Positions 15,197 through 38,398 of a stretch of 64,000 nt of DNA are shown here, in pieces. The DNA comes from an uncultured virus (IMG/VR IMGVR_UViG_3300025844_000001) (lineage: Duplodnaviria; Heunggongvirae; Uroviricota; Caudoviricetes; Demerecviridae), in the IMG/VR virus record IMGVR_UViG_3300025844_000001. One strand, 5' to 3'. Positions within the stretch are counted from its first letter, which is position 1. The number at the start of each line of letters is the position of its first letter. The translations under genes were made by a program, and so were the position numbers. The notes beneath the pieces were generated by a model, which was not told the DNA's origin, made no database searches, and saw only the letters and a program-made list of their open reading frames with translations.

Positions 15197-15411
15197 TACG
15201 TACCCTCTGTTATAATTAAACCATCTTCCACGTTTACGTTATCTTCATCTTCCATAAATTCTTCTTTCATGTTAGTAACAACTAAATGGATTTGGCAGTT
15301 TCCAACTCTACCAATTAAACTAGTACCAACAACATCATTACCTAGTTCTTCTACTGCTAGAAGTTCTTCTTCTACTAACTTTTGCAACTCTTGTGTATTA
15401 ATATGTACCAT
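15196..15411 (-). CDS. hypothetical acidic protein
   Basis: Coupled ORF. Confidence 0.65.
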   Translation of the reverse strand: MVHINTQELQKLVEEELLAVEELGNDVVGTSLIGRVGNCQIHLVVTNMKEEFMEDEDNVNVEDGLIITEGT

Positions 15412-16337
15412 TATTCTTCTCCTACTAGAGTTAAAACTAATTCTACGAATCTAATTCGTTCTTGCTCACCTAAAGCTGTCCATTCTTCTTGACTAAAAGC
15501 ACCACGAATCTTTTCGATAACGGATAAGAACTCCTCCTCTAGCCCTAAGTTAAATACTTCTCTTGCCTCCATTCCCCATAGACGAGCAGTTTTCTTAGAA
15601 CCACCTCTAGCGATGAACTTAGTACCTAGGTAGTGCGGAGACTTAACCTTAGCTACTATCTTTCCATCGAAGTCACGAACCATGAACCCTTCCATCTTAC
15701 AGTTCTTAACTAAAGAATCCAGTTCCTCTTTATTCTTAACTAAACGATGCTCTTTTCTATACCACTTAAAGTTACTAGCTAAAATATCTAGCTCACACTC
15801 TAACATCATAGTACCAGTATCTTTGCGTCTAGCTCCAATTAAATAGATACCAGGTTCTTCTTTTACTATGTGTGGGTCATCTGTGTGGCATACCTCAAAC
15901 ATAAGAGTAAAGCTATCTAGTAACTTATCTAAGATTAATGAGTTAGCAAATGTATCATTGTTATCTTTCCAGTGCCAAACAAAAGAATCTCTCCACATAG
16001 TAACAAATGGTGAGTCTAGTGAACCTGTTGTTGAGAATGTATCTCTACCCTCATATCGAGTAATAACACCTAAGAATCCATTAACCTTATCTACTAGTGT
16101 GAAAGGGAACTCTGGGTATCCCGTGCCATTTTCACCAATGTTAAATACTTTAGTGAAAGGATGGGCTACAACATTATTATCTAAGTCTAGTACTAGTCCT
16201 CTACATTCCTTTAATAATGGATGTACTTCCCATAGGTTATCATAAAATACTTTTCGTGCGTACTTTACTACTTTAAGTTTACCTACTTGTTTTACTGTAA
16301 TTAAATCTGCTGGTATTGCTTTTAAGTTAAATTTCAT
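15411..16337 (-). CDS. RNA ligase (Rnl1-like)
   Basis: ECRGLV, PFTKVFN, KVNGFLG (motif I), EGFMVR, KVKS. Confidence 0.88.
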   Translation of the reverse strand: MKFNLKAIPADLITVKQVGKLKVVKYARKVFYDNLWEVHPLLKECRGLVLDLDNNVVAHPFTKVFNIGENGTGYPEFPFTLVDKVNGFLGVITRYEGRDTFSTTGSLDSPFVTMWRDSFVWHWKDNNDTFANSLILDKLLDSFTLMFEVCHTDDPHIVKEEPGIYLIGARRKDTGTMMLECELDILASNFKWYRKEHRLVKNKEELDSLVKNCKMEGFMVRDFDGKIVAKVKSPHYLGTKFIARGGSKKTARLWGMEAREVFNLGLEEEFLSVIEKIRGAFSQEEWTALGEQERIRFVELVLTLVGEE

Positions 16338-24926: not shown

Positions 24927-25004
24927 TGGTAGTCCAAGGCGGTTTCGAACCGCTCCTTCCTCCAGTTATGAGCTGGGCGCATTAACCAATTATGCTATTA
25001 GACC
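24927..25004 (-). tRNA. tRNA-Met/Ile2 (CAT)
   Basis: Cloverleaf, loop CTCATAA, CCA. Confidence 0.9.
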
Positions 25005-25103
25005 ATTATTAAATAGGAGCCTCCAGAGACGATGAAAGCAGGGAAGGAGACAAAGAAAGAGAGGCTCCTATTTAATAGCCTCTCGTAAGAAAGGCTGGTA
25101 TTG

Positions 25104-25337
25104 TTATAAAGCTTTAATCTGTTTAACTACTTGTTTGGTTTGTTGGTAAACTGCTCGACCACAACTAGGGTCTAACATAATAGTAACTGTAGGATATGTA
25201 GAAACTACTTTACCCTCTGCATTCTTGATTGGCTTCAAACGTTCTGTGCCTTCCATTTGCATATACTTAGTAGTACCTGTACCGATACCTTGTTGGCGTA
25301 GTACACGACGAATCTGTTTGGCTTTTTTATTACGCAT
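25104..25337 (-). CDS. small basic hypothetical protein
   Basis: MRNKKAKQIRR..CGRAVYQ; AAGGA RBS. Confidence 0.75.
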   Translation of the reverse strand: MRNKKAKQIRRVLRQQGIGTGTTKYMQMEGTERLKPIKNAEGKVVSTYPTVTIMLDPSCGRAVYQQTKQVVKQIKAL

Positions 25338-25367
25338 TGTTACTTTCCTTTTATAAGATTAATTAAT

Positions 25368-25734
25368 TAGTGCTGGTTACGTATTCGGGCAGAACCCTTT
25401 ATCCAGCGTCGTGGTTGACTAGAAGCCTTGACCGTTGTATCACGTTATTTATTCTCGATTATCTAGCATACGAGTGTAAGTGCGTAGCTTGGAACAAATT
25501 GGTTAAACACAGTAATAGAGGGCTTTCCTCATGTACGCAATCACTAGTTTACAACCTAACTGACGATCTTAATGGGCAACGTAGATAAGAAAGCTATCTA
25601 CTGTAGGTTCCAGGGTTGTTGTCGGTAATACGAACCTTTGTTACACGCTAGTTTGGTTTTTCTGAGGACGCTAGGTCGTCCCTTTTATTGGATTGCCGTT
25701 CTTTTCGCTATACTACGGTAGCCTGCTAGCACTA
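25368..25734 (-). ncRNA. candidate ~370-nt ncRNA
   Basis: Own promoter without RBS leader, closing stem UAGUGCU/AGCACUA, multiple hairpins, no sense ORF. Confidence 0.55.
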
Positions 25735-25830
25735 TTAGTGCCACTTCTCCATATCTAGTCATACACGAACTCGTCTCTCAATTCAATAAATATATTATAC
25801 GCTAATCTAAGCATTTAGTAAAGGAGTTTT

Positions 25831-26103
25831 TTAATCTTCTACGTCATGCCCTTCTTCATCATAGCAATCATTACATATGCCTTCATCATTACTATTAGTA
25901 AATTCAAGAATTTCGCCTGGATGACCCCACCAAGAGCAACCTGGGCATCTAAACTGTTCTACTTTAGCACATACTTCTTCAAGGTCAAACGCACTTAAAC
26001 CTAGACTGACTAACATATCTTCACCACGTTGGTTATCACAACCACCAGCTACTTGGTCTGCAATCTCGTCAATCTGTGTACTAGTTAAGTCATCAATATT
26101 CAT
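25831..26103 (-). CDS. acidic Zn-ribbon-like protein
   Basis: CPGC..CNDC; promoter plus RBS. Confidence 0.75.
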   Translation of the reverse strand: MNIDDLTSTQIDEIADQVAGGCDNQRGEDMLVSLGLSAFDLEEVCAKVEQFRCPGCSWWGHPGEILEFTNSNDEGICNDCYDEEGHDVED

Positions 26104-26171
26104 TGCTTATTTCCTTTCTCAATTCAATAAAGCTATTATACGCTAAGATAAGCATCTAGTAAAGAAGTTTT

Positions 26172-26630
26172 TTAATATTTTTCTAGCGCTGACTTCAATT
26201 GTACGTAAGCCTTTTGGTACTTCTGCATACGTTCAAAGTCTTTATCAGTTAATCCTTTTAAACGAGTAAGGTCGCTGTTATGACGTAAGTCTGCTAACTT
26301 AACTAGGATAGCATCTTTATTAGTACAGATACCATCAATGTATGCTTGATAGCTAACGCCCTTGACATGCGTTAAAAGATGCAAAGCATCTGTAGCGCGT
26401 GTGTGGAACCCTAAGGAAATTAAGTCAGATAACTTAGTGCTAGTATCTTCTAGTAAGTCATGCATTACTGCAATCTGTTTAACTACTGGGTCGCTAGACC
26501 TTACTTTATGCATAACTGTTAAGCAATGTAAAATATAAGGTTGACCACCACGGTCAAACTGGTCTTGATGACCTTGTGCGGCTAAAGCAATTGCTTTTGC
26601 TAGTAGTTCTTGTTGTGTTTTCATTTCCAT
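26172..26630 (-). CDS. HD-domain (p)ppGpp-hydrolase-like (SAH/MESH1-like) protein
   Basis: H..Q..R.GQPYILH, MHDLLEDT, VKLADLRHN. Confidence 0.88.
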   Translation of the reverse strand: MEMKTQQELLAKAIALAAQGHQDQFDRGGQPYILHCLTVMHKVRSSDPVVKQIAVMHDLLEDTSTKLSDLISLGFHTRATDALHLLTHVKGVSYQAYIDGICTNKDAILVKLADLRHNSDLTRLKGLTDKDFERMQKYQKAYVQLKSALEKY

Positions 26631-26839
26631 AACTGTTCTCCATTAATAACTGTACACCATGTACTATCAATTCTTGTCATAAAAGGTTTTCTCTGTGGAT
26701 TACCATGACTATCATGGGTTACAGCTACATATAGTAACGGTGTAGTACCTTTACGAAATATAATATGTTTTACTTCACCTGTCCATCTAGCTCTAAAGTG
26801 GGAACGTACTATGGTACTAACTTTTATTTGGTTTTTCAT
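26621..26839 (-). CDS. hypothetical protein
   Basis: Promoter plus RBS. Confidence 0.7.
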   Translation of the reverse strand: MKNQIKVSTIVRSHFRARWTGEVKHIIFRKGTTPLLYVAVTHDSHGNPQRKPFMTRIDSTWCTVINGEQLWK

Positions 26840-26876
26840 TTCTGTACCTTTCCTAACTCAATAAAGCTATTATACG

Positions 26877-27245
26877 TTATTTATACGAGGTATGCAACGT
26901 ATTTTTTACTCTTTCTATAGTTGCTTTTAATGCTTTTGCTTCCATTTTTGATTTTTCGCTAATACGTCTAGTATACGTAATAACTTCTTTCTCTGTTCTA
27001 CCTATTACATCAAAGGTGGAGCATATGTGCCCAAAGAAATCCTCTAATGAGGTGATAGAGTATATTAGGCAACCCTTGCTTTGAGCATCTATCTCCACAC
27101 TAGCTACTACATTTACAACATAAGGACTGGTGTAGCTTCCACCATTATTTTTAGCTACCCAGATATTCTCTCCTACTGAGGGAATAGTCTCCCATCCTTT
27201 ATCCTTTAAGCTAGTATTTATAACTGTTCCTACATTTAGTTTCAT
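26877..27245 (-). CDS. hypothetical protein
   Basis: AAGGA RBS. Confidence 0.7.
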   Translation of the reverse strand: MKLNVGTVINTSLKDKGWETIPSVGENIWVAKNNGGSYTSPYVVNVVASVEIDAQSKGCLIYSITSLEDFFGHICSTFDVIGRTEKEVITYTRRISEKSKMEAKALKATIERVKNTLHTSYK

Positions 27246-27247
27246 AC

Positions 27248-27415
27248 TTATTTCCTTAAATACTTGGGTGTAAGTCCTAGCTCACGTTCAAACATATTTC
27301 TAAAATGGATTACTATATCATCTACCGTAATCTGTGATTCCAACTGTTGTGCTTTTTCTAATATCTTAGGCATCTTGTGCCCAGCTCTCCAACAATCAAA
27401 CATTAATTTATCCAT
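27248..27415 (-). CDS. small hypothetical protein (55 aa)
   Basis: Read manually: MDKLMFDCW..; AAGGA RBS. Confidence 0.6.
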   Translation of the reverse strand: MDKLMFDCWRAGHKMPKILEKAQQLESQITVDDIVIHFRNMFERELGLTPKYLRK

Positions 27416-27424
27416 AACTATTCC

Positions 27425-27871
27425 TTACCAGTCGTAATAAACAGAGCTAATAGCAGCTTTCATTAATGCTTCGCGTAGCTCAACCATCATTGGGTGATTA
27501 ACTAATATTAAATATGGGTCATCACATCCTGCTTCTTCTAGTCTATAGTACTCCTTAGAGAACTTACTATCCTCGTTACATACTAGTGACTCCATAATAG
27601 CTTCTAGCTGCTCAACTAGGTCAATGCTACTATATCTCTCAGCATGTACCATACCATCATAGCAAATAGGTTCATCATGTTCTGGTATAATATTATTCCA
27701 ACCATCCCATGTGTAACGGTGCTCACTACCACCTAGTCTATACCAAGCTAGGTAGTGTTCCCAACGTCTATTGTGCCCAATAAATTCAGTATCTTGGAAT
27801 GTACGTCTTAGGGCAAACATTAAAGCTATTTTTCTTTCAGATAATTCTTTCTCTTCTAGTATTAAGTCCAT
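27425..27871 (-). CDS. hypothetical protein
   Basis: AAGGAG RBS. Confidence 0.75.
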   Translation of the reverse strand: MDLILEEKELSERKIALMFALRRTFQDTEFIGHNRRWEHYLAWYRLGGSEHRYTWDGWNNIIPEHDEPICYDGMVHAERYSSIDLVEQLEAIMESLVCNEDSKFSKEYYRLEEAGCDDPYLILVNHPMMVELREALMKAAISSVYYDW

Positions 27872-27881
27872 AATTAGCTCC

Positions 27882-28253
27882 TTAGCTTAAATTAGTAAAG
27901 TATTGTATACCTTCGTCTGACCAGTAAGTAAGTGTTACTGCAATAACAGGTGCTTCTAAGTCTGTGTAGAATCTATCCATTTCTATGCCTTCCATATCAG
28001 ATACTAAGTCATATCCTTCTATATCAGAAATTTCTACATCTTCTAAGTTATTCTCATATACATATAAGCATTCTAGATAGAAATTTAATACCTTTAATAA
28101 CTTTACTTCATCATACTCACTAAACATAAGTACTATGTCTGATTCCCCGTCAGCATCACCATGCATAAAATCTACGTCTAACTGGTAGGAATTTGTATGT
28201 GGTTTTCCAATAGGGACTTGACTTCCTAATTGTATTTTTTTAATTTTTTTCAT
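27882..28253 (-). CDS. hypothetical acidic protein
   Basis: Promoter plus RBS; FMHGDAD. Confidence 0.75.
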   Translation of the reverse strand: MKKIKKIQLGSQVPIGKPHTNSYQLDVDFMHGDADGESDIVLMFSEYDEVKLLKVLNFYLECLYVYENNLEDVEISDIEGYDLVSDMEGIEMDRFYTDLEAPVIAVTLTYWSDEGIQYFTNLS

Positions 28254-28345
28254 CTGCTTTCTTCCTTTCTTAATTCAATATAGCTATTATACGCTAGATT
28301 TAGCGGTTAGTAAAGAAAATTATTACAAAAAAGCCCTGACTAATG

Positions 28346-28693
28346 TCAAGGCTCTTTATGATAACTTCCGTACATACAGTGCAACACTTCATGTCCTAGG
28401 ATTCTTTCTACTTCACTAGATGCCGTAGTCGGCTTTACTATGTGAACTATACAAGTATTCGTGGGGTCGTTTAGATACCATGTAGCTAAACCGGCAACCA
28501 TTACATGATTAGGGTTGTATGTATCCTTAATATATCTATTAAGTTCCATATCGTCTTTAAATAATTTTACTTCTAGCTGTACCTGAGTACGAACAGTACT
28601 ATTATCTAATACTGGGTAGATCCTGCCACAAGCTGCTGCCAGTAATAGGGTAAATACTATCATTATAAATAAGTTTTTAATGATAACCTCCAA
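28346..28693 (-). CDS. putative lipoprotein with HExxH motif
   Basis: LAAAC lipobox-like, GHEVLH. Confidence 0.65.
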   Translation of the reverse strand: MEVIIKNLFIMIVFTLLLAAACGRIYPVLDNSTVRTQVQLEVKLFKDDMELNRYIKDTYNPNHVMVAGLATWYLNDPTNTCIVHIVKPTTASSEVERILGHEVLHCMYGSYHKEP

Positions 28694-28787
28694 GTTTAAA
28701 ACGTGCTAAAACCCTAGAGTATTAGTCTAAGGTTCTGCAATTTGCTTATTTAAAGTCCTAAGCTGTGGGACTATTGTTGTAACAATT

Positions 28788-28875
28788 TGGCGGAAGTAGT
28801 AGGACTCGAACCTACATAGCGTTGCCACTGTCTCTCCTTAGCAAGGAGGCCGTTTACCATTGAACGTATACTTCC
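28788..28875 (-). tRNA. tRNA-Ser (GCT)
   Basis: Long variable arm, G73, CCA. Confidence 0.9.
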
Positions 28876-28876
28876 T

Positions 28877-29155
28877 TTAATTCTTAATAACGTCTATTGT
28901 TTTACCCTCGATATTTGTAACATAGCAAGTGTGATAATACTGTTTTTCGGCAAAATCTGGTGAAGCTTCTAGAGCTTGTGCTACCTTCTCTGAGCAAACT
29001 ATATAATCTACTCCATTAGTTTGGGTAAGTCCAGGATAGACAGTAACTGTCTTAATTCCGGATGTGTGAGTATACACTACATAATTTGGTACTGCTACAG
29101 TTGCTTGCACGTTTGTACTAGAGTTAAATATTGAACTGAATTTTAATGTTAACAT
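28877..29155 (-). CDS. hypothetical protein
   Basis: TAAGGA RBS. Confidence 0.75.
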   Translation of the reverse strand: MLTLKFSSIFNSSTNVQATVAVPNYVVYTHTSGIKTVTVYPGLTQTNGVDYIVCSEKVAQALEASPDFAEKQYYHTCYVTNIEGKTIDVIKN

Positions 29156-29298
29156 ATGTTTCCTTATTTGTTTGCTTATTTGTTTGATTAGTTGACTGGC
29201 TTGTTGAGGACTTTAACCCCTCCAACCGTACAAGCGCTCTAAGATAAACGGTTAACAGTCTAACAATACATTCCGTAGTAGCGGTATTGTGGCTGATT

Positions 29299-29372
29299 TG
29301 GTACTCACTGTTGGAATCGAACCAACGTCGCTTCCGTGTAAAGGAAGTGCATATCCCCTTTGCTAAGCGAGC
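29299..29372 (-). tRNA. tRNA-Val (TAC)
   Basis: Cloverleaf, CCA. Confidence 0.9.
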
Positions 29373-29489
29373 TTAATTAGTCGTAGTACTTCATCTATAG
29401 CAGGTTTAGCAGTCTCAGTATGCTCCCCTACTAACTCTATGAACTTAACTAGTACATTAATATAATCTATTCGTTCTTGTATGCCCATA

Positions 29490-29783
29490 CTAAAAATCCC
29501 ATAACTGTTCTTTCATTAGTCTAGTTTCTTCTTCAAAATCAATGCCAAGCTTAAACACTTCATTGGCAGTAGCTAAGGACATACCCCAAAACGCTTGAGT
29601 ATCGTTTTCTACTACTTCCATTGCTTCGGTTAACTCTTCACTCATTTTAGCTTCTCTTGCAGGTATTTCTGCGTAAGAGCCGTGCATCAAACTTCTGTCC
29701 CAGTTACGAATAGCTTCATCCATATTAGTTAAACCACATACAAAAGCTAATTCTACTGCAAACTTAATACTAGGATACTCCAT
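29490..29783 (-). CDS. hypothetical protein
   Basis: ORF with RBS. Confidence 0.7.
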   Translation of the reverse strand: MEYPSIKFAVELAFVCGLTNMDEAIRNWDRSLMHGSYAEIPAREAKMSEELTEAMEVVENDTQAFWGMSLATANEVFKLGIDFEEETRLMKEQLWDF

Positions 29784-29923
29784 TAGTCTCTCTCCTTACC
29801 ACATATTCGGCATTCAGATACATGTACAGAATCATTATGTACTATATAGGAGAACTTAAACTTGTAGTCATGTTCTCCCTCAGCACATTCTTTTTTATCT
29901 GATTCTTTAGGTTTATTCGTCAT
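29783..29923 (-). CDS. small Cys/His protein (46 aa)
   Basis: Read manually: MTNKPK..CRICGK; coupled both sides. Confidence 0.55.
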   Translation of the reverse strand: MTNKPKESDKKECAEGEHDYKFKFSYIVHNDSVHVSECRICGKERD

Positions 29924-30134
29924 CTGAGTCATATGCATCTTCCTCGTATTGCGGAGTTAATTTATCTTGATCAATTAACTCATAATTTTCATTATATAGA
30001 CGAATAATGCCAGTATCTAAATCAATTAATTGGCAACGAGTTGTTCCTGAAACTAACTCTAAAGCATCTGATATAGATGGGCTAACAAATACAGTAGGGT
30101 AGCTATTACCTAAGTCTTGTACTAATATGGTCAT
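29913..30134 (-). CDS. hypothetical protein
   Basis: AAAGGA RBS. Confidence 0.7.
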   Translation of the reverse strand: MTILVQDLGNSYPTVFVSPSISDALELVSGTTRCQLIDLDTGIIRLYNENYELIDQDKLTPQYEEDAYDSDDE

Positions 30135-30153
30135 AATGTTTCCTTTAATTAAT

Positions 30154-30264
30154 TGGTGTCTGACCCTTCGGCTCGACCGAAGTAGCGGTACTGGCCAAGT
30201 ACGCCCTCATTACGAGAGAGCTGGGAACTCAATATCCCTAAATGCTTGTGCAACTATGTCAGAC
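30154..30264 (-). ncRNA. expanded tRNA-like RNA (CCA end)
   Basis: 7-bp acceptor GUCUGAC/GUCAGAC, A73-CCA, T-like arm, extra hairpins. Confidence 0.7.
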
Positions 30265-30270
30265 ATTGTT

Positions 30271-30348
30271 TGGTGGAGTATACGGGACTACGTAGTTACC
30301 CGTTCAGGCATTTGCTAATCCCTGCGTGTTAGACGATTGCATTACCCC
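30271..30348 (-). ncRNA. tRNA-Ala-like RNA with G3:U70 and aberrant T arm
   Basis: GGGGUA..UACUCCACCA; loop UUAGCAA. Confidence 0.65.
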
Positions 30349-30354
30349 ATTGTT

Positions 30355-30447
30355 TGGCGGAAGCCGTGGGGATCGAACCCACACGCCCATCACTGAGCTA
30401 ACTGTTTTCAAGACAGCATCCGTCGCCAGCCTTCGGATGGGACTTCC
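30355..30447 (-). tRNA. tRNA-Ser (TGA)
   Basis: Long variable arm, CCA. Confidence 0.92.
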
Positions 30448-30455
30448 TTAATTCT

Positions 30456-30686
30456 TTATTTAACGCTAGCAGTAGATAATGTAGCTAGAACCATACACTT
30501 AGGGTCTTGGTTATAGCTATCATCTAGAGCACAGCTAATAGCTACGGGAGATACTCCATCTTTAACCATTTGAGCAACAATGTTATTTTTGTTATTATAA
30601 TACCCTGTAATTGATAATACTAGAGCTATAGCAAACACTAATACCATTGAACAAATACTTGTATAAAATTTTGCGTCGCTGTCCAT
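30456..30686 (-). CDS. small membrane protein
   Basis: Single TM, TAAGGA RBS. Confidence 0.75.
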   Translation of the reverse strand: MDSDAKFYTSICSMVLVFAIALVLSITGYYNNKNNIVAQMVKDGVSPVAISCALDDSYNQDPKCMVLATLSTASVK

Positions 30687-30863
30687 TTTGTTTCCTTATT
30701 GCGTTTATGGTTATTATTTTTAAACAACTCTATTCCACAACCACCTATTGACTAGATAGACATGTTGCTTTCCATTAGTCTCAGTCAAAGACCTTAGTGC
30801 CCCTCTTTGGGGCATAGTAGAGGGTTTCAAATCCCCCACCCTAAAAGCTGTTTAAAAATAAGG

Positions 30864-31160
30864 TTAGATAGCAACCTTAACATGTTTCTTTTTCTTCAAT
30901 TTAATACTGCAAGCTATACCTATTGCTCCACCTAGAGCAGTTGGTATTAGACTTTGATAAGGGTCATTAGAAATAATCCCGATAGAAGCAACTGTGCAGA
31001 CTGACATTAATAGGCTAGTAAGCATTGCTGCTAAAGTTTCTTCTCTAATTACGTTAAACGTCTGTACTCCGCGTAGGAATATAGAGCCTAATGTTACAAT
31101 GAACTGCGTAGTAAAGAACGCTAAGTCAAATGTAAATATAGCGTATATGTGGTCTAACAT
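30864..31160 (-). CDS. multi-pass membrane protein
   Basis: Start reset to MLDH to avoid tRNA-Thr; AGGA RBS. Confidence 0.75.
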   Translation of the reverse strand: MLDHIYAIFTFDLAFFTTQFIVTLGSIFLRGVQTFNVIREETLAAMLTSLLMSVCTVASIGIISNDPYQSLIPTALGGAIGIACSIKLKKKKHVKVAI

Positions 31161-31179
31161 AGTTGCTTTCCTATTTATT

Positions 31180-31254
31180 TGGTGCCCGTACACGGATTCG
31201 AACCGCGATAACTTGATTACAAAACAAGCGTAATAGCCTTTATACGATACAGGC
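31180..31254 (-). tRNA. tRNA-Thr (TGT)
   Basis: Loop TTTGTAA, GCC acceptor, CCA. Confidence 0.88.
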
Positions 31255-31340
31255 GAATGTATCGGCACTATCTAATCTTTATCCAACCTGATTTCGCAGG
31301 GAATCGAACCCCGTTTTAAGTTACATAGATAGTGCCAAAT

Positions 31341-31418
31341 TGGTCTCCCTGAGTGGATTCGAACCACTGACCCCTCGCGTCCAAGGCGAGCACGCTGACC
31401 AGACTGCGCTACAGAGAG
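31341..31418 (-). tRNA. tRNA-Pro (TGG)
   Basis: Canonical cloverleaf. Confidence 0.93.
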
Positions 31419-31501
31419 TTTATTTAATTTGTAGTACCTAGCGGGCGTTAGGTTGCTAGGATTCCCTATTCACGTCTTAGGTGTTTCCTTTACTACAAAA
31501 T

Positions 31502-31584
31502 TGGTACAGATGACTGGAATCGAACCAGTATTTACAACTCCTATTACGGTTACTTGCTTCGTAGGCAAGCTCGGTTACATCTGC
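31502..31584 (-). tRNA. atypical D-armless tRNA-Arg (ACG)
   Basis: Acceptor, anticodon and T arms intact; 8 nt in place of D arm; 23-nt variable region. Confidence 0.7.
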
Positions 31585-31585
31585 A

Positions 31586-31873
31586 TTATATATCTTCTGA
31601 CACCCTATAATAGGTGCTCTCTAAATGTTCTTTAGATGAACTCCACATAATTTCTAGGTTATTGTGAATTTCACTTTCAAATGGGTTATGTACCATGTAG
31701 ATGGTAATACCTGCATTTAGTTTATTAAACATTTTCATCCAGTGAGTATCTTTATACTCACCTGAACTAGGTAGATTAGTAACTCCTGCCCCTTTCAATG
31801 CCGCTACTAGCTCATAAGTATTATCAAACTTAGTATGGGTAAGCTTGGTTATTAACCATTCTACTTGAATCAT
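31586..31873 (-). CDS. hypothetical protein
   Basis: Start reset to MIQVEW after tRNA-Tyr; AAGGT RBS. Confidence 0.7.
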   Translation of the reverse strand: MIQVEWLITKLTHTKFDNTYELVAALKGAGVTNLPSSGEYKDTHWMKMFNKLNAGITIYMVHNPFESEIHNNLEIMWSSSKEHLESTYYRVSEDI

Positions 31874-31889
31874 AACTTTACCTTTAAAT

Positions 31890-31979
31890 TGGTGGAGCTG
31901 GGTGGAATCGAACCACGTGCCCAGAGGGACAGGATTTACAGTCCTGCGAAGCTCCATAGCCTCCTTACATGCCACCTCC
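31890..31979 (-). tRNA. tRNA-Tyr (GTA), atypical D region
   Basis: CAGGA-CTGTAAA-TCCTG, variable arm, CCA. Confidence 0.8.
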
Positions 31980-32357
31980 AAAATATTGAGAGCTTTAACG
32001 TAGCCCAGATAAGATTAGTATCAACGATAGGTTATTTAGTTGTCTACCTACTTAGACTAGTGTGGACTTTCCACCCACTTGCAACACCAAGTTAAACGCT
32101 ATTGTGCTTCGTAGCGATGCATATTTTAAGGCCACCCCATTTAGGGTCTAACATTCATTTTTAAACACTCTAGTCTAAGTGCTTTCCAGTCAGAGGTTGT
32201 ATCCGCCCCTCTCTTAAACGTTCCCTAGGGAACTAACCACAACTGACGTAATCTGTGGCAACTGTACTTTTCCACCCTCCATAGGATTCGCATTGCTAGG
32301 TGGTATCTTCATCAACCAGTATTTTCCTACCATAGGACTGGGTGGTTGATGAAAATT

Positions 32358-32432
32358 TGGTACCCTGTGGGAGAATTGAACTCCCCTTGCTAGGTTGAAA
32401 ACCTAGAGTCCTAACCGATAGACGAACAGGGC
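32358..32432 (-). tRNA. tRNA-Glu (TTC)
   Basis: Cloverleaf, CCA. Confidence 0.92.
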
Positions 32433-32441
32433 TTTAAATTA

Positions 32442-32696
32442 TTAACCGATGTGTACTTCCACCACAGAGACTCGGTAAATCTCATGTAGTATTTCTTTTA
32501 CAGTTCCTGGGTCTAATTCTTGGTCACTTTCTTTACCAGCAATTAACTCATATAAGTCTTTATTAAGTGACTCTAGTACCTTTAGAATAGCTTGTACTTC
32601 CTTTGATTCACCCTCACATAATACTAATTCATGATGTAATACATCACTATTATAGTCATACATAGCTACTGCATAAGTTATTGTTCTAATACTCAT
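32442..32696 (-). CDS. hypothetical protein
   Basis: Promoter plus RBS. Confidence 0.75.
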   Translation of the reverse strand: MSIRTITYAVAMYDYNSDVLHHELVLCEGESKEVQAILKVLESLNKDLYELIAGKESDQELDPGTVKEILHEIYRVSVVEVHIG

Positions 32697-32705
32697 TGTT
32701 TTCTT

Positions 32706-32769
32706 CCTTTCTCAATTCAATAAAGCTATTATACGCTAGATTGAGCGGTTAGTAAAGATAAACTTTAAA
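32706..32769 (-). promoter_or_regulatory. repeated early promoter TTTACT-N17-TATAAT with ATTGAATTGAGAAAGG leader
   Basis: Near-identical copies at ~35470 and ~38713; related copies at ~18860, 25780, 26115, 28265 (minus) and ~55133, 56476, 57699, 58830, 60194 (plus). Confidence 0.85.
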
Positions 32770-32775
32770 TCAATT

Positions 32776-32852
32776 TGGTGGGAACTACTCGAATTGAACG
32801 AGTGGCCTCCTGTGTTTCAAACAGGCGCTCTAACCAACTGAGCTAAGTCCCC
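32776..32852 (-). tRNA. tRNA-Phe (GAA)
   Basis: Cloverleaf, CCA. Confidence 0.92.
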
Positions 32853-32950
32853 TAATCTTCTTGACAATCATCAATGCCTTGTTTAACCCCTAAAAGGAAC
32901 CCTACAATAAACACTGAATAAATTGCTAAACCTATAACTAAATAAGTCAT
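32852..32950 (-). CDS. small membrane peptide (32 aa)
   Basis: MTYLVIGLAIYSVF; AAAGGA RBS. Confidence 0.55.
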   Translation of the reverse strand: MTYLVIGLAIYSVFIVGFLLGVKQGIDDCQED

Positions 32951-32965
32951 AACTATTCCTTTAAT

Positions 32966-33048
32966 TGGCAAAGGCGTGGGGAGTCGAACCCAATGCAGTG
33001 GATTTGGAATCCACCCTCCGACCACTCGGAGTTGAAGCACACGCCAAT
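32966..33048 (-). tRNA. tRNA-Trp (CCA), atypical
   Basis: GTGGA-TTCCAAA-TCCAC, T arm, G73-CCA; weak acceptor stem. Confidence 0.7.
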
Positions 33049-33054
33049 ATTGTT

Positions 33055-33131
33055 TGGAAGACCAGACCGGATTCGAACCGGTGAATCGAAGATTTGCAAT
33101 CCCCTCCCTTAGGCCTCTCGGGCACTGGTCA
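33055..33131 (-). tRNA. tRNA-Cys (GCA)
   Basis: U73, CCA. Confidence 0.9.
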
Positions 33132-33139
33132 ATTGTTCT

Positions 33140-33388
33140 TTAACGAGTTAGTACAATTCTCATTCCTAGCATTTCTGTTAGGCATAATTTATGATAATGG
33201 GATACGCCCGGTGGTAAACCTGAATCATTTATGTTGTTACCTACAACTCCACCACCTATTCCTTTATCTTTTCTAGAATCTGTAAAATGGATATTCCCTA
33301 GAACAGCAACCCCACCTAAGTTAGTATGGGCTGTATCTTCGATAACTTCACCACAAATATCACAAATAACTTTGAATTTAATTGCCAT
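33140..33388 (-). CDS. hypothetical protein (CxxC)
   Basis: CDICG..HKLC; GAGGT RBS. Confidence 0.7.
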   Translation of the reverse strand: MAIKFKVICDICGEVIEDTAHTNLGGVAVLGNIHFTDSRKDKGIGGGVVGNNINDSGLPPGVSHYHKLCLTEMLGMRIVLTR

Positions 33389-33692
33389 TGTTTACCTCAT
33401 AAAATTGTTTTGGTAATAGTACTTCTACTATTGGTTTGATGGTGCCACCTATATCGTAGTGGGAGTCTAGGCTAGAGAAATAATCCTCAGGACTAGGCCA
33501 ACCATCACAAACACAAACAAAGTAGAATCTCTTACCACAGTACCAAGCCAAGTCTGTAATTCTAGAGTTAACATGGTACCATGTATCTGGTTTTAATTTA
33601 TCAATACCCAAGTACTTTGTTCTTGGTGTTCTATCAAGCAACTTTTCTATTGCCTTTAGTTGCTTTATTTCTTCGGTATTAAAATCCATCAT
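33378..33692 (-). CDS. hypothetical protein
   Basis: GAGGT RBS. Confidence 0.7.
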   Translation of the reverse strand: MMDFNTEEIKQLKAIEKLLDRTPRTKYLGIDKLKPDTWYHVNSRITDLAWYCGKRFYFVCVCDGWPSPEDYFSSLDSHYDIGGTIKPIVEVLLPKQFYEVNNGN

Positions 33693-33708
33693 TACCTCGT
33701 TGTTTAAT

Positions 33709-33783
33709 TGGTGCGGGTAAAGAGACTCGAACTCTTAACTAATGCTTGGCAAGCACTCGTGTTACCATTGACACTATACACGC
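33709..33783 (-). tRNA. tRNA-Gly (GCC)
   Basis: Cloverleaf, CCA. Confidence 0.9.
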
Positions 33784-33789
33784 ATTGTT

Positions 33790-33864
33790 TGGAGCGTCTA
33801 CTCGGACTCGAACCGAGAACTTCGACTTGGAAGGACGTTATGTTACCATTAACACCATAGACGC
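33790..33864 (-). tRNA. tRNA-Gly (TCC)
   Basis: Cloverleaf, U73, CCA. Confidence 0.9.
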
Positions 33865-34026
33865 TTAAATTGGTTTTACTGTGATATTAAGTTTGTTTAG
33901 TTTAAATCCCTCTGGCTTATAGTTTTTATGTAAAAACCATTTTGCCTCCTGAATATGGCGGGTTGTTTTTATACCTAAACCTCTTGCAAGGTAGTGTCCA
34001 GAACTATTAATTAAAACATAATACAT
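33865..34026 (-). CDS. small hypothetical protein (53 aa)
   Basis: Read manually: MYYVLINSSGHYL; fills the tRNA spacer. Confidence 0.5.
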   Translation of the reverse strand: MYYVLINSSGHYLARGLGIKTTRHIQEAKWFLHKNYKPEGFKLNKLNITVKPI

Positions 34027-34045
34027 ATAATATCCACACTAAATT

Positions 34046-34116
34046 TGGTAGGCACTAGATAGAGTTCTCCTAGTATTAAGTTTATATCCTTAATGTATTA
34101 AGGTCTCAAAACGCCC
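34046..34116 (-). ncRNA. degenerate tRNA-like CCA-ended RNA
   Basis: GGGCG/UGCCU-A-CCA, two hairpins, no TTCG. Confidence 0.4.
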
Positions 34117-34124
34117 TTTTCATT

Positions 34125-34201
34125 TGGGGTGACTGACGGGACTCGAACCCGCTAACACTTGAATCACAATCAAGATGCTATCCTCTTTGCACTCAGTCAC
34201 A
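34125..34201 (-). tRNA. tRNA-His (GTG)
   Basis: C73, CCA; -1 base is T. Confidence 0.9.
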
Positions 34202-34261
34202 TCATAATGCTCTATTTAAAAGCTCTATGATGTAACTACTATTTCTAGTAGGTACATTGTT

Positions 34262-34337
34262 TGGTAGAAGCGGTGGGATTCGAACCCACTATCGACTGGT
34301 TAAAAGCCAGATGCTTGTCCTAATAAGCTCCACTCCT
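34262..34337 (-). tRNA. tRNA-Lys (TTT)
   Basis: Cloverleaf, CCA. Confidence 0.9.
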
Positions 34338-34683
34338 ATAAGTTTACTTTTGATAGATATACTATCAGAAGTAAACTTCCGGCTAGAGGGTTACGACCCC
34401 TTCTAACTAAATACTCTACACGTATACTTCCATTAAAGGTAAATAAATAACCATTCCCTAGCCGCGACTAATGGGTAGTTACATATTATATATTGTAGTT
34501 CTGACCGTGCCTGTGTATTCTAATCAGGCTGGATATTGGAATCTTCACTTCCATTATCGGTTAGGCTATGTGAAGAACCTAACATTGTCTCCTTTGTTTA
34601 ACATTGCTAGGGAGGTAGGTATTATAGGCTTTTCTTTAGCCTACCTCTCTGACGTTACTCAGCTTCGAGAGTCCTAGCAAATT

Positions 34684-34760
34684 TGGCGCGAATGATGGGA
34701 GTCGAACCCACTTTCTCTACCGTGACAGGGTAGCGTATCCTCCATTTCTACTTCATCCGC
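34684..34760 (-). tRNA. tRNA-Asp (GTC)
   Basis: G73, CCA. Confidence 0.9.
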
Positions 34761-34765
34761 ATATC

Positions 34766-34842
34766 TGGTGGGACTGATGGATTCGAACCATCAAGCTATA
34801 ATAAAAGACGCCTGAATTTTATATAGTATCAACCATTGTCCC
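34766..34842 (-). ncRNA. minihelix-like tRNA mimic
   Basis: GGGAC/GUCCC-A-CCA with perfect T arm, one irregular central hairpin. Confidence 0.6.
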
Positions 34843-34848
34843 GTTGTT

Positions 34849-34922
34849 TGGTGGAGGATGAGAGAATCGAACTCTCATCACCTACGTGCAAGGCAGGTGT
34901 AATTCCGTTATACTAAACCCCC
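34849..34922 (-). tRNA. tRNA-Ala (TGC)
   Basis: G3:U70, CCA. Confidence 0.92.
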
Positions 34923-34929
34923 GTAAATC

Positions 34930-35175
34930 ATTTAATACAGCACCCTGATAGCGCTAACTTATTTTATCCATCAGGGTCTTTTAGGAGTGATCAATCTCCA
35001 AGCTCTACCACATTATACGTATTTATAAGTAACCCGCCAGGGTAGGGAATCGAACCCTTACCTACTATATAGTGTTTAGAATGTTGTGAACTAGGCTCTC
35101 CACCTAATCCACTACTCATGAAGAGTTGTACGTCCTCTCCCACTAAACTACACACGCCGTGTTGCTGTATTAAAT
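34930..35175 (-). ncRNA. candidate structured RNA with internal T arm
   Basis: 13-bp terminal stem; internal GGGTTCGATTCCC. Confidence 0.55.
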
Positions 35176-35185
35176 AATCTAAAAT

Positions 35186-35277
35186 TGGTGCCCGATGTGA
35201 GATTCGAACTCACAAGCCACATCAAAGGGCTACTGGCTTCTAAGACCAGCGTGTACTTCCATTACCACCAATCGGGC
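35186..35277 (-). tRNA. tRNA-Leu (TAG)
   Basis: Long variable arm, CCA. Confidence 0.92.
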
Positions 35278-35460
35278 TTATTCTTCTTCACTTACATAAT
35301 CGTCAAATGCACTAACACAATCTTCGCATAGGTCGTTATGGTCTAAATCCTCTTGACAACTAATACTGTCACAGTTTCTACAGTAACAAGCTTCTACATG
35401 TTCATGTGAATCATCATTACATAAATCACTGTGTGTTCCACATATTGTGCAATATTCCAT
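35278..35460 (-). CDS. Cys-rich small protein
   Basis: Start MEYC after AAAGGA leader. Confidence 0.7.
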   Translation of the reverse strand: MEYCTICGTHSDLCNDDSHEHVEACYCRNCDSISCQEDLDHNDLCEDCVSAFDDYVSEEE

Positions 35461-35662
35461 GTTTCTTTCCTTTCTCAATTCAATAAAGATATTATACGCT
35501 AGATTGAACGGTTAGTAAAGATAAACTTTAAATTAAGTTGATTATTAGATAACTCAACTGTCTTTACCTTTTCATAGCTATATTGGAGAACCTCGTTAAA
35601 GGGGTATTGCTCAAGCTAGTACTACGGTCAGGGGAGTATCGTTTTAGGCTTTGCCACAAAAA

Positions 35663-35848
35663 CTAATAATCTTCCATTTCTTTTTCAAATGCTGCTTTCC
35701 TATCCATTTCAGCACAATGTTCTCGGTATCTATCATCCATTGCTGTAAGACAGGCTCCACTATTACATGTTGCTGCTGAGGTTCTCCCATACCAGCGAGT
35801 AGCTACAGCTTCATTACAAATATCACACTTTCCACTAGGTTTTTGCAT
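35663..35848 (-). CDS. Zn-finger-like small protein
   Basis: CDIC..CNSGAC; TAAGGA RBS. Confidence 0.7.
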   Translation of the reverse strand: MQKPSGKCDICNEAVATRWYGRTSAATCNSGACLTAMDDRYREHCAEMDRKAAFEKEMEDY

Positions 35849-35870
35849 TTCTAGTATTCCTTATCTAAAT

Positions 35871-35947
35871 TGGCGGACGCGGTAGGACTCGAACCTACTA
35901 TCTTCTACTTAACAGGCAGTCGCTTATACCACTTAAGCTTCACATCC
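35871..35947 (-). tRNA. tRNA-Asn (GTT)
   Basis: G73, CCA. Confidence 0.9.
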
Positions 35948-36218
35948 AAAATTTGTTGCCAGTTTCTTAAATTACATTGAGTTCACCTTAATACGTTTCC
36001 TAGGACATACTAAGTCACCTAAATGCTATACCTTTCGGTACTGGCGAAGTCTTTATTAGTAAAGTACACTCTACTTTAGCGCGTCCGCTATATTTAGAAC
36101 TCTGTTACATACAACCGGTAGGTGCTTTCGAATTTATTACCACCTTGGGCTTTTCAATGGATATTATAGTAATTCTTAATCCATATCTGCTGTTCTAAAA
36201 TGTACTTGACTAATAAAT

Positions 36219-36294
36219 TGGTAGAGAGTACTGGATTTGAACCAGTATCAGTCAGCTTATGAGGCTGCTATCGTTACCATTAGACCAACCCTCT
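36219..36294 (-). tRNA. tRNA-Met/Ile2 (CAT)
   Basis: Cloverleaf, CCA. Confidence 0.88.
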
Positions 36295-36576
36295 ATGTTG
36301 CAGGTTTACGTTATGGGGAGCATTGACCTGCTTACTTCCCCTACCATTTTGTGGTCGTTAGACACCCATATTAATATGGACTTAATGCAGAACAAAGGAT
36401 AACCCGTAAAGATACTGCATCTTACTTTTATTTTTACTAATATTCTAGATATTGGTTGCGTTATAGTCATAAGAGTCTATTCGCCTAGTAAAGCTCCTTA
36501 TCCATTTGCTTTACTAATTAGTCTAACCTCACAGGGTAATATTTTAAAGTGCTAATACCTGCTTGCACGTTGGATT

Positions 36577-36654
36577 TGGATGCGAGAACAGGAGTCGAAC
36601 CTGCAATCTCTAGGTTATGAGCCTAGTATGGTAAATCCGTTCCACCACCTCGCT
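36577..36654 (-). tRNA. tRNA-Met (CAT), initiator-like
   Basis: 1:72 mismatch, GCGAG acceptor, CCA. Confidence 0.85.
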
Positions 36655-36660
36655 ATTGTT

Positions 36661-36735
36661 TGGTGAGATTCTCTAGGCTTTTACTAGATACTTAAAATAG
36701 GCGTCTCCTACCCATATATGCTTGAGTTGTCTCCC
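36661..36735 (-). ncRNA. degenerate tRNA-like CCA-ended RNA
   Basis: GAGA/UCUC-A-CCA, 5-bp/7-nt T-sized hairpin lacking TTC. Confidence 0.35.
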
Positions 36736-36857
36736 GACTAACGGCTTTCCATCCGAGCTTTAATTCCAAAGCTATATGTATCTACCTAGTAGAGATAGTG
36801 GTTTTCCGTACCATCTACATTAAACGGCCTAGTTATTTGATACTAGGAAACTGGATT

Positions 36858-36931
36858 TGGTACTCAGTGCTAGAGTTGAACTAGCATCAATCGCTTATCA
36901 AGCGAACGTTCTACCATTGAACTAACCGAGC
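36858..36931 (-). tRNA. tRNA-Ile (GAT)
   Basis: Cloverleaf, CCA. Confidence 0.9.
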
Positions 36932-36998
36932 ATTGTTTTCTTAATTTCTAAAATCTATTTTACAGGTTTTTAAGCTGTTTAGCAAGAAGTTTATTAAA

Positions 36999-37211
36999 CT
37001 ATATAAAGCCGTACTGACACTCAGTAGCTAGAACTACTCTACCATCATCTAACTGGATTATAGCTAAATAAGGCTCGGATATATCATCACGAATCATAGT
37101 ACCTAGATAAGCTGTGTCAGTATTGTAATTAAAGTACACATTAACACGTCTACCTACATCTTTATCTTGCTTAGGATATAATTTACCACTTATGTATGCG
37201 GATACGCCCAT
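36999..37211 (-). CDS. hypothetical protein
   Basis: AAAGGA RBS; IIQLDDGRVVLATECQY. Confidence 0.75.
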   Translation of the reverse strand: MGVSAYISGKLYPKQDKDVGRRVNVYFNYNTDTAYLGTMIRDDISEPYLAIIQLDDGRVVLATECQYGFI

Positions 37212-37233
37212 ATACTGTTCCTTTATATTAATT

Positions 37234-37310
37234 TGGCAGAGGATACTGGATTTGAACCAGTGGTCACGGCTTCAAAGGCCGCTGCATTAACCAGACTATG
37301 CTAATCCCCA
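37234..37310 (-). tRNA. tRNA-Gln (TTG)
   Basis: G73, CCA. Confidence 0.9.
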
Positions 37311-37320
37311 ATTGTTTGTT

Positions 37321-37409
37321 TGGTATACCCTGAGGGATTTGAACCCACCGACTTCCAGACCCTCAGTTTAACGTCGTCCGCTTAGAAGGCGGGTAAGGGA
37401 ACAGGGTAC
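37321..37409 (-). tRNA. atypical D-armless tRNA-Arg (TCT)
   Basis: Acceptor, anticodon loop CTTCTAA and T arm; no D arm; long variable region. Confidence 0.7.
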
Positions 37410-37413
37410 ATTA

Positions 37414-37695
37414 TTAATCCTTAAAATTTAATGCGTCTAGTGATGTTATAATACCGTTATCTTTTAAATACCAGTACATATATCTTTGTACTGTACTTAG
37501 CTCACCTAAGCAGCTAGCTAAAGCTAATTCTTTTACCATTTCATCTACTACAGTATAGCTTAGGTGTGTAAAATAGCTAGGTGGTTTAGTTAAATAGCAA
37601 GTATTATGCGGGTCTGTTTCTCCAATAGTGTGTCCCATAGTGGTATACGCTCTTTGGATAGAGACCTTTTCGTCTAGTGTTAAATTTTTTGGCAT
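37414..37695 (-). CDS. hypothetical protein
   Basis: AGGGGT RBS. Confidence 0.7.
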   Translation of the reverse strand: MPKNLTLDEKVSIQRAYTTMGHTIGETDPHNTCYLTKPPSYFTHLSYTVVDEMVKELALASCLGELSTVQRYMYWYLKDNGIITSLDALNFKD

Positions 37696-37713
37696 AAATA
37701 CCCCTATATTAAA

Positions 37714-37805
37714 TGGTACGAGTAATGAGATTCGAACTCATAAGCCACATCAAAGGGCTATGGGATTTTAAGTCCCACGTGTACTTCCATTACCACCATA
37801 CTCGC
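37714..37805 (-). tRNA. tRNA-Leu (TAA)
   Basis: Long variable arm, CCA. Confidence 0.92.
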
Positions 37806-38167
37806 ATTAAAATCTCTTTGATACAATAAACTATATTGGATTATATTTCCCGATCTGGTACTCTATAACACCATCTCTGCAACATATTTAAGCTAAGTTA
37901 CGGCCAAGTAACTACGAGCGACCATCTTCGTATCGACCCTATTTGGGTTGCTTTATTTTGGCATCAGTCGTACAGCTAATTTATTGTTCAAAGAAATCTT
38001 TCCCGATTTCTTAAATATATTATACGTTATTTTCACTATTTAGTAAAGAACGTTTTTAACTTTATTTGATTGCAACCCACTAAATTAAAACGATAAGGTT
38101 TAGTGGGTTACTTTTCAAATCTAGGAATATATTATAAAACAATATTGGTTCCCTGTAAAGCAAATTT

Positions 38168-38398
38168 TTAATTTTCTTTTACAAAGTGATCGTAAAAGTA
38201 TTTAACACAGAATTGTCTATCTAAAGAGTTATACCAAATATAGTGGTCTGGTAGCTCTCTAGCTGCTTCTGTAATCTCCTTAGGTAATATATTATATAAC
38301 CCTTGTCCTACCCGATAACTAGGCTCTAGAGCTACTAGCTCATTAACAGCTTTTACTTCAAAAACTGCCTCAGCAGGTGTAAAAATCCTACAAGTCAT
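38168..38398 (-). CDS. hypothetical protein
   Basis: YRVGQGLYN motif; RBS. Confidence 0.7.
   Translation of the reverse strand: MTCRIFTPAEAVFEVKAVNELVALEPSYRVGQGLYNILPKEITEAARELPDHYIWYNSLDRQFCVKYFYDHFVKEN

Follow-up and report, generated by a model that had tools for sequence, protein, structure and literature searches.

The core of a canonical tRNA is formed by a D stem (10-13/22-25), by U8, A14, G18, G19 and A21 and by a 15-48 pair, with G18-G19 sitting on the T loop (PMC10424219), and the order of the cloverleaf arms is treated as fixed outside mitochondria (PMC13092985, PMC10424219). In metazoan mitochondria, the D-armless tRNA-Ser(AGY/UCU) has a short, flexible connector in place of the D arm (PMC7609411). 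The 8/4 allo-tRNAs and the (8/4) tRNA-Ser and tRNA-His of phages are cloverleaves with a modified acceptor branch, and an 8/4 allo-tRNA that was tested as an amber variant inserted mainly Ala and Ser (Mukai et al., PMC5389517). In the circularly permuted tRNA genes of red and green algae and of one archaeon, the halves are swapped, and bulge-helix-bulge splicing yields a normal cloverleaf (PMC3978253). Here we describe two elements in a 64,000-nt stretch of DNA from an uncultured virus (IMG/VR record IMGVR_UViG_3300025844_000001; the whole stretch is called the window in the following), which judging from their sequences are quite likely working phage tRNA-Arg with strands connected in an altered order. 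One has the anticodon ACG (31502-31584), the other TCT (37321-37409), and both lie on the minus strand at the positions where the original prediction had placed them.

With the canonical bacterial tRNA-Arg(ICG) and tRNA-Arg(UCU) (RF00005), the two elements have in common the acceptor and T arms, the CCA end, the loops CUACGAA and CUUCUAA, G18-G19-A20 and A73, and also the A34 editing signature and, in one of the two folds (type B), an equivalent of the 15-48 pair. They differ in having the 5' strand of the D stem and the D loop downstream of the anticodon arm; the tRNA-Arg(UCU) of T5 itself is of the canonical kind. The D hairpin (10-13/22-25) is missing, linkers of 8 and 9 nt connect the acceptor to the anticodon arm in its place, and regions of 23 and 28 nt follow the anticodon arm, which in both copies has a 7-nt loop, U33 and a purine 37. 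The original prediction had these lengths right, but its term D-armless is too simple, as each linker pairs with a strand downstream of the anticodon arm and this strand is followed by a D loop with G18-G19-A20. As in mitochondrial tRNA-Ser, the connector is short, but in the phage elements it is base-paired and covarying, the GG-N20 motif is kept on the 3' side, and the setting is bacterial and viral, not organellar. With the 8/4 allo-tRNAs, the second fold (type A) shares the 8-bp acceptor, the 4-bp T stem and the occurrence in phage tRNA clusters, whereas it has no D hairpin and has a pseudoknot, and type B has a 7/5 branch. Like in permuted tRNA genes, segments are out of order, but it is an internal segment that is moved, and the ends are normal. 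As the elements appear to work like a tRNA-Arg and yet lack the D hairpin of the cloverleaf, they represent a new structural variant of tRNA. No description of a fold with a transposed D domain was found in the full-text literature, supplements and subscription journals aside, and the available parts of PMC7609411, PMC8421152, PMC9976931, PMC5389517, PMC12255301, PMC13092985, PMC6409571, PMC10424219 and PMC3978253 do not describe it, although the supplements of PMC5389517 could bear on this. Among the families of Rfam 15 other than tRNA, none reaches its gathering cut-off in the window or in ten loci of relatives.

The ACG copy was assigned to subfamily B2 of type B from its sequence, model R2 and alignment A3. 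It consists of a 7-bp acceptor, an 8-nt linker, a 5-bp anticodon stem with the loop CUACGAA, the 23-nt 3' region, a 5-bp T stem, A73 and CCA, and the strands of its D stem are split around the anticodon arm, with the D loop bulging out on the 3' side of a 7/5 molecule. U8 and linker nt 9-15 (31570-31577) hold the 5' strands of both core helices according to the pairing in 83 B2 sequences. Nucleotides 12-14 pair with nt 36-38 (31547-31549), the relocated D-stem strand that covaries in B2, and nt 9-11 pair with the GUU of nt 47-49 (31536-31538), which closes the D-loop bulge and is identified by covariation of pair 10-48. Between these helices lies the 8-nt relocated D loop (nt 39-46, 31539-31546) with equivalents of A14 and A15 and with G18-G19-A20 at 31541-31539, recognized by the conservation of UA(A/G)..GGA, and the B2 fold is thus nested. 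The anticodon is located at 31560-31562, with 31562 being A34, a position that is a G in RNA libraries. Nucleotides 14 and 36 form an A.C mismatch in the ACG copy, as in 22 of the 83 B2 sequences. Model R2, which had been trained without the ACG copy, gives it 49.8 bits compared to at most 35.6 for other tRNAs. ARAGORN calls the element with a wrong 5' end, and Rfam scores it as tRNA with 36.9 bits, the other RF00005 matches of the window reaching 41.6-69.8. By BLAST there is no full-length match in cultured phages, and the relatives were found by pattern scans. A hairpin of UAAC with GUUG in the minimum-energy fold of this copy, which would resemble a helix of type A termed P2, was dropped, since covariation pairs the GUU with the linker.

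The TCT copy represents type A, with an 8/4 branch and a pseudoknotted core in which the helices P1 and P2 cross, as assigned from the sequence, BLAST relatives and an alignment of 41 sequences. The single fold originally proposed for both elements was thereby replaced by two related ones, the 8/4 pseudoknot of the TCT copy and the nested 7/5 fold of the ACG copy. The TCT copy has the 9-nt linker, the loop CUUCUAA, the 28-nt 3' region, A73 and CCA, and its G8-C65 is best read as the eighth pair of the acceptor, which leaves a T stem of 4 bp. The 5' strand of P1 (nt 11-15, 37395-37399) directly precedes the anticodon stem with its UCU anticodon (37384-37386), and the 5' strand of P2 (nt 34-37, 37373-37376) directly follows it. 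Further downstream come the 3' strand of P1 (nt 46-50, 37360-37364), which is the relocated D-stem strand, the relocated D loop (nt 51-57, 37353-37359; G18-G19-A20 at 37356-37354), and the 3' strand of P2 (nt 58-61, 37349-37352), which leads into the T arm. The helices are placed by covariation, for the 5' strands and for the 3' strand of P2 in the 41 sequences, and the loop by alignment and a 16-59 contact, its first nucleotide (U) being complementary to T-loop nt 59 (A). The pairing of CCCUUA with UGAGGG that had been noticed in this copy at the outset does form, and it covaries. ARAGORN misses the TCT copy, and Rfam gives nothing at gathering level, merely 21.4 bits as tRNA-Sec with a cut-off of 47.

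Altogether at least 343 distinct relatives were collected, 41 of type A and at least 302 of type B; several of the pattern scans give lower bounds only, and the counts are not frequencies. A descriptor scan of 30 doublet shuffles of the window found no such element. The first type A relatives were two unannotated full-length BLAST matches in Vibrio phages, and pattern scans of IMG/VR then led to the 41 distinct sequences. P1 was imposed by no pattern scan, and yet in these 41 sequences all five of its pairs have changed on both sides and 95.6% of the cells are paired. P2 is formed by the two ends of the long 3' region; of the 41 sequences, 30 have A-U and 11 have G-C as the middle pair of this helix, and in 18 the outer pair is not formed. 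As P1 and P2 cross, the core is a pseudoknot, with the conserved GG between the 3' strands of the two helices. Position 8 pairs with 65 (G-C in 32, C-G in 4 and U-A in 2 of 41), and type A therefore has an 8/4 branch. Tree-aware testing was done on 30 gap-free rows of the 41, the TCT copy of the window not being among them, and the P1 pair 14-47 was above every null (G-test, two tree-aware nulls), with E=0.13 for pair 13-48. The same type of test gave E=0.28 for an unexpected pair, 16-59, which joins the opening base of the relocated loop to nucleotide 59 in the T loop and is a standard pair in 38 of the 41 sequences, including U-A in the TCT copy. Type A keeps G18-G19, G8 is paired into the acceptor, and an equivalent of 15-48 is not clear. 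Bacterial tRNA-Sec also has an 8-bp acceptor, but tRNA-Sec differs in having a long D hairpin and a UCA anticodon. The 16-59 pair resembles the contact between D loop and T loop described for tRNA-Sec (PMC7609411).

For type B, a pattern restricted to the ACG loop, the T loop and CCA matched at least 120 loci, of which 43 had both stems, 39 a short linker, and 32 were distinct, and all 32 distinct ones among the matches listed have U8-A9, UA(A/G)..GGA downstream of the anticodon arm and an AU in front of the T stem. In subfamily B1, pairs 12-38, 11-39 and 13-37 reached scores of 381, 350 and 158 against a null maximum of 131, in an anchored alignment with 196 of the 222 type B rows, the rest having been dropped for length. 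The anchored alignment was used for type B since the fixed-column alignment A2 mixes registers and thus understates the helix. A dedicated scan for B2, the subfamily with an 8-nt linker that includes the ACG copy, found 111 loci with 83 distinct complete parses. All 83 have Arg anticodons, though any N-C-N was allowed, and the unconstrained pairs 10-48 and 13-37 are both formed in 83 of 83. In the tree-aware test (A3, 60 of the 83 sequences), pairs 10-48, 13-37 and 14-36 scored 91, 70 and 59 against a null maximum of 55, and for pair 10-48 there were 17 branches with changes in both partners and none with a change in one partner only. The 15-48 equivalent of B2 is A-U in 73 and G-C in 10 of the 83, with no other combination. 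Relocated counterparts of the core residues U8, A14, R15-Y48, G18, G19 and A21 are found in 83 of 83 B2 and in 32 of 32 listed type B sequences, and acceptor and T branch together have 12 bp in both folds. There is thus hardly any doubt that the fold is real and conserved. Covarying homologues, the lack of which had been named as part of a refutation, exist for types A, B1 and B2, and the suspicion of a D domain reassembled from the 3' side has been borne out by the covarying helices and by a relocated GG-N20 that tracks the isotype. Types A and B may be linked, as is hinted at by a member from phage Felix O1, to which the B model gives a score of 58.8 and the A model one of 43.8.

As to the amino-acid identity, A20 is the main determinant for ArgRS in E. 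coli, together with C35, U/G36 and A/G73 (PMC9976931). Both copies of the window carry all four elements, with A20 in the relocated loop. Among the type B matches listed, all 104 Arg members have A at position 20, and all 117 Ile-family members have U, C or G there. The Ile family is a second large group with a non-A base after the relocated GG and the anticodons GAU, UAU and CAU, and A73 is present in all 117. The sampling was partly built on position 20, with Arg without A20 and Ile with A20 each allowed in some scans, and among the matches listed, the type B scans open to them parsed neither; the scan open to Ile with A20 found at least 120 loci, and all 38 parsed ones were Arg. In type A, there are 35 TCT, 3 CCT and one each of ACG, CCA and GCA anticodons. 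Model R1 gives 54.6 bits to a type A member with Tyr(GUA), which had been no part of the training set. The class is thus not confined to Arg, the isotype of both copies of the window, but includes the 117 listed Ile-family members and single Trp, Cys and Tyr members of type A. The latter, with Tyr (L359:5632-5721, minus strand), Trp (L510:579-667) and Cys anticodons (L516:520-609, minus strand), have C, U and A after the GG, respectively. Another observation concerns the loci L082, L101, L122 and L140, where a canonical Leu-like D arm and a long variable arm are combined with an ACG (Arg) anticodon; these are possible missense or recoding tRNAs.

In the proposed order, the chain would run from the 5' strand of the acceptor through an equivalent of D-stem strand 22-26, the anticodon arm and a short linker to the equivalent of D-stem strand 10-13, and then through the D loop (A14, R15, G18, G19, A20) and position 48 into the T arm. 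The relocated D loop would dock on the T loop, and the L-shaped core is probably kept despite the new strand order. In the canonical tRNA structure, position 8 adjoins 21 and 22, and 21 adjoins 48, which is why the new strand links look short. Type B would have counterparts for all canonical core features, and type A would reach a similar order with G8 in the acceptor and P2 added. The host ArgRS could read A20, C35, G/U36 and A73 in this arrangement, the ACG copy would decode CGU, CGC and CGA after editing of A34 to inosine, and the TCT copy would decode AGA.

Inosine is read as G, and TadA, which needs a UACG motif, also edits mRNA stem-loops (PMC12255301). Four metatranscriptome runs contain the region of the Arg elements. 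Contigs of three RNA runs (X19, X20 and X21) and of one DNA run (X1) were compared over positions 30,300-38,300 (8,001 bases), and the sole listed difference is a T-to-C change (plus strand) at 31,562, present in 3 of 3 RNA runs and absent from the DNA run. As this is A34 of the ACG copy on the minus strand, the A-to-G change is an inosine signature, and the remaining 19 TACG motifs on the same strand are unchanged in the RNA contigs. The RNA contigs also span the TCT copy, which is unchanged.

The class is widespread. Among the cultured phages, Streptomyces phage Mildred21 has four copies, and Xanthomonas phage XacN1, Mesorhizobium phage Cp1R7A-A1 and Felix O1 carry members as well; E. coli K-12 phages have a copy identical to that of Felix O1, and BLAST gave matches in phages of Microbacterium, Rhodococcus and Caulobacter. 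Pattern scans of assemblies from bacteria and archaea found 53 loci, of which 25 proved to be real members, often within long tRNA arrays; a 26th parse (L355) was rejected as an AT-rich false one. ARAGORN detects 5 of the 262 class members tested, which agrees with the expectation that scanners would miss such a rewired class, and in public records members are unannotated, listed as tRNA-OTHER or given a wrong isotype. In Mildred21, one copy is labelled tRNA-OTHER, one mislabelled as Phe and two are blank. The one annotated as tRNA-Phe(gaa) (L365:31367-31445) is a type B tRNA-Arg(UCG). The Felix O1 member (L650:5952-6033) is an unannotated type B tRNA-Arg(UCU) that overlaps the start of an annotated HNH endonuclease ORF.

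That standard scanners score these elements low or not at all, and that public annotation is correspondingly blank, vague or wrong, might suggest decaying pseudogenes or chance look-alikes, but this is refuted by covariation and has practically no chance of being true: at least 343 distinct members have compensatory changes in every helix, shuffled sequence gives no match, and the 82-nt Felix O1 member has matches in 263 phage records, which in 252 cases extend over 80% or more of this member. The original argument against decay agrees with these observations. A rearrangement at the gene level that RNA processing turns back into a normal cloverleaf is very improbable. Splicing does repair permuted tRNA genes (PMC3978253) and the phage encodes an RNA ligase, but the elements have an internal transposition and not a circular permutation, their acceptor strands are in the normal place, the B2 helix 9-11/47-49 and P2 of type A have no place in a cloverleaf, and there is no joint within either element in the RNA contigs, which is weak evidence as contigs drop rare forms. 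Structured tRNA mimics that soak up anticodon nucleases, synthetases or other tRNA-binding defence proteins and have no role on the ribosome are a more serious alternative, yet an unlikely one. It would fit with such decoys that the carriers among those examined are limited to phages and tRNA arrays and that the element lies beside a canonical tRNA-Arg(UCU) in cellular genomes, where such a pattern occurs elsewhere in four of the five checked; the missing match in G006 does not prove that it is absent there. In the 28 loci with at least eight ARAGORN tRNAs, however, 37 of 38 members replace and do not accompany the canonical isoacceptor, as the fetched stretch, which is bounded by flank limits and in some of these loci is a near-copy of the window, holds no canonical tRNA with the same anticodon. 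Also the synthetase determinants outside the anticodon are kept (A20 in Arg, A73 in the listed Ile members), as is the 12-bp length of the acceptor and T branch in both folds.

Several observations count against the reading as working tRNA-Arg with rewired strands. The near-copies and flank limits just named weaken the replacement argument, and since a canonical tRNA-Arg(UCU) pattern coexists with it, the element is accessory in those cellular genomes. The T stem of the TCT copy includes a U.U pair and its anticodon stem is topped by a C.A (four pairs plus C.A), and together with its 8/4 branch this leaves the normal acceptor, anticodon and T arms that had been attributed to both elements to the ACG copy, with CCA present in both. 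The minimum-energy fold of the TCT copy (-30.2 kcal/mol) differs from the proposed one, the nested parts of which have -22.7 and -23.6, with pseudoknots not scored. For the 15-48 equivalent of B2, tree-aware testing gave no significance (E=5.3, with 4 changes among 60 sequences). Of the 39 type A Arg members, 21 have U73, which would also suit a decoy as do the imperfect stems, and two have U after the GG. Arg and Ile members form mostly separate clades (11 label changes versus 63 in shuffles, on a weak tree), and the correlation with position 20 thus reflects few independent events. The editing speaks only for transcription and a correct anticodon hairpin, because TadA also edits mRNA hairpins, and since the contigs are assembled and the RNA runs date from 2020 and the DNA run from 2017, a GCG allele is possible.

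Why working tRNAs with rewired strands should exist at all can be answered in two ways. The rewiring could, as a tentative explanation, be an escape from host enzymes that recognize the normal D arm or core of Arg and Ile tRNAs, and nearly as likely it is a neutral variant of the wiring which spreads together with tRNA arrays.

The window is part of a T5-like phage genome, with an origin-binding protein 51-52% identical to its counterparts in T5-like phages and, in a PHROGs scan of 43 ORFs, a split NAD-dependent ligase, a D5-like regulator and nucleotide-metabolism genes. Aquifer and groundwater metagenomes hold DNA identical to it, and by BLAST the tRNA region is matched by any cultured phage over 3% of its length at most. 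The tRNA cluster (24927-37805, minus strand), delimited with ARAGORN, Rfam and sequence inspection, contains 23 tRNA genes called by ARAGORN, and when the two Arg elements and the atypical genes for Tyr and Trp are included, it has tRNAs for all 20 amino acids; record G001 has no tRNA in addition to the cluster. As had been noticed originally, no canonical tRNA-Arg is present in the window according to ARAGORN, Rfam and the descriptor scan, and the ACG and TCT elements are the sole Arg tRNAs found there. Among 561 Arg codons in 52 ORFs of the window, AGA (235) and CGU (204) are the two commonest, and they match the codons of the TCT and ACG genes. No synthetase or tRNA-modifying enzyme was recognized among the scanned ORFs of the window (43 with PHROGs, 66 with Pfam, in overlapping sets). 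A promoter scan of the window gave 24 matches, with 25.0 expected by chance, and the same sigma-70-like element occurs three times inside the tRNA cluster (38047, 35519 and 32756, minus strand; 10 of 12 matches, 17-nt spacer).

Further unusual elements lie in the same cluster on the minus strand. The atypical tRNA-Tyr(GUA) at 31890-31979 has a long D region with an extra hairpin, an acceptor G.G mismatch and a 12-nt variable region, and is detected neither by ARAGORN nor by Rfam at gathering level. The atypical tRNA-Trp(CCA) at 32966-33045, with shifted acceptor pairing, unpaired bases before CCA and a 6-bp hairpin at the D position, is detected by neither program. A tRNA-like element at 34766-34845 has an acceptor, a T arm and CCA and lacks a recognizable anticodon arm, and a structured RNA of about 130 nt at 35030-35160 ends with a T-arm-like hairpin, has no Rfam match and is reminiscent of the stable tRNA-like RNAs annotated in T5. 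Elsewhere in the window, nicotinamide phosphoribosyltransferase is encoded in two ORFs (7462-9785, minus strand) with a NUMOD4 endonuclease ORF between them, possibly an intron, and a T4-type RNA ligase adjoins an AAA_33 kinase-like ORF (14795-16337, minus strand; Pfam), possibly as a tRNA repair pair. In Vibrio phage 1.084.O, a tRNA-like element of 91 nt (L002:12799-12889) is missing from the annotation; it has an acceptor, a T arm, CCA and a loop with CAU, and does not form a cloverleaf.

A widespread class that has the core contacts and the synthetase determinants in an altered strand order would mean that it is the fold, and not the order, that is conserved. As ARAGORN finds so few members and public records leave them blank or mislabel them, inventories of phages and tRNA arrays undercount Arg and Ile tRNAs. 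The class offers a natural alternative tRNA scaffold. On the sequence data it is conceivable, if somewhat doubtful, that it is a second natural topology of translating bacterial tRNAs with at least three wirings, one of them pseudoknotted, which would be charged by ordinary ArgRS and IleRS, be active on the ribosome, and keep up the decoding of Arg and Ile codons by the phage under defences directed against the D arm or the core.

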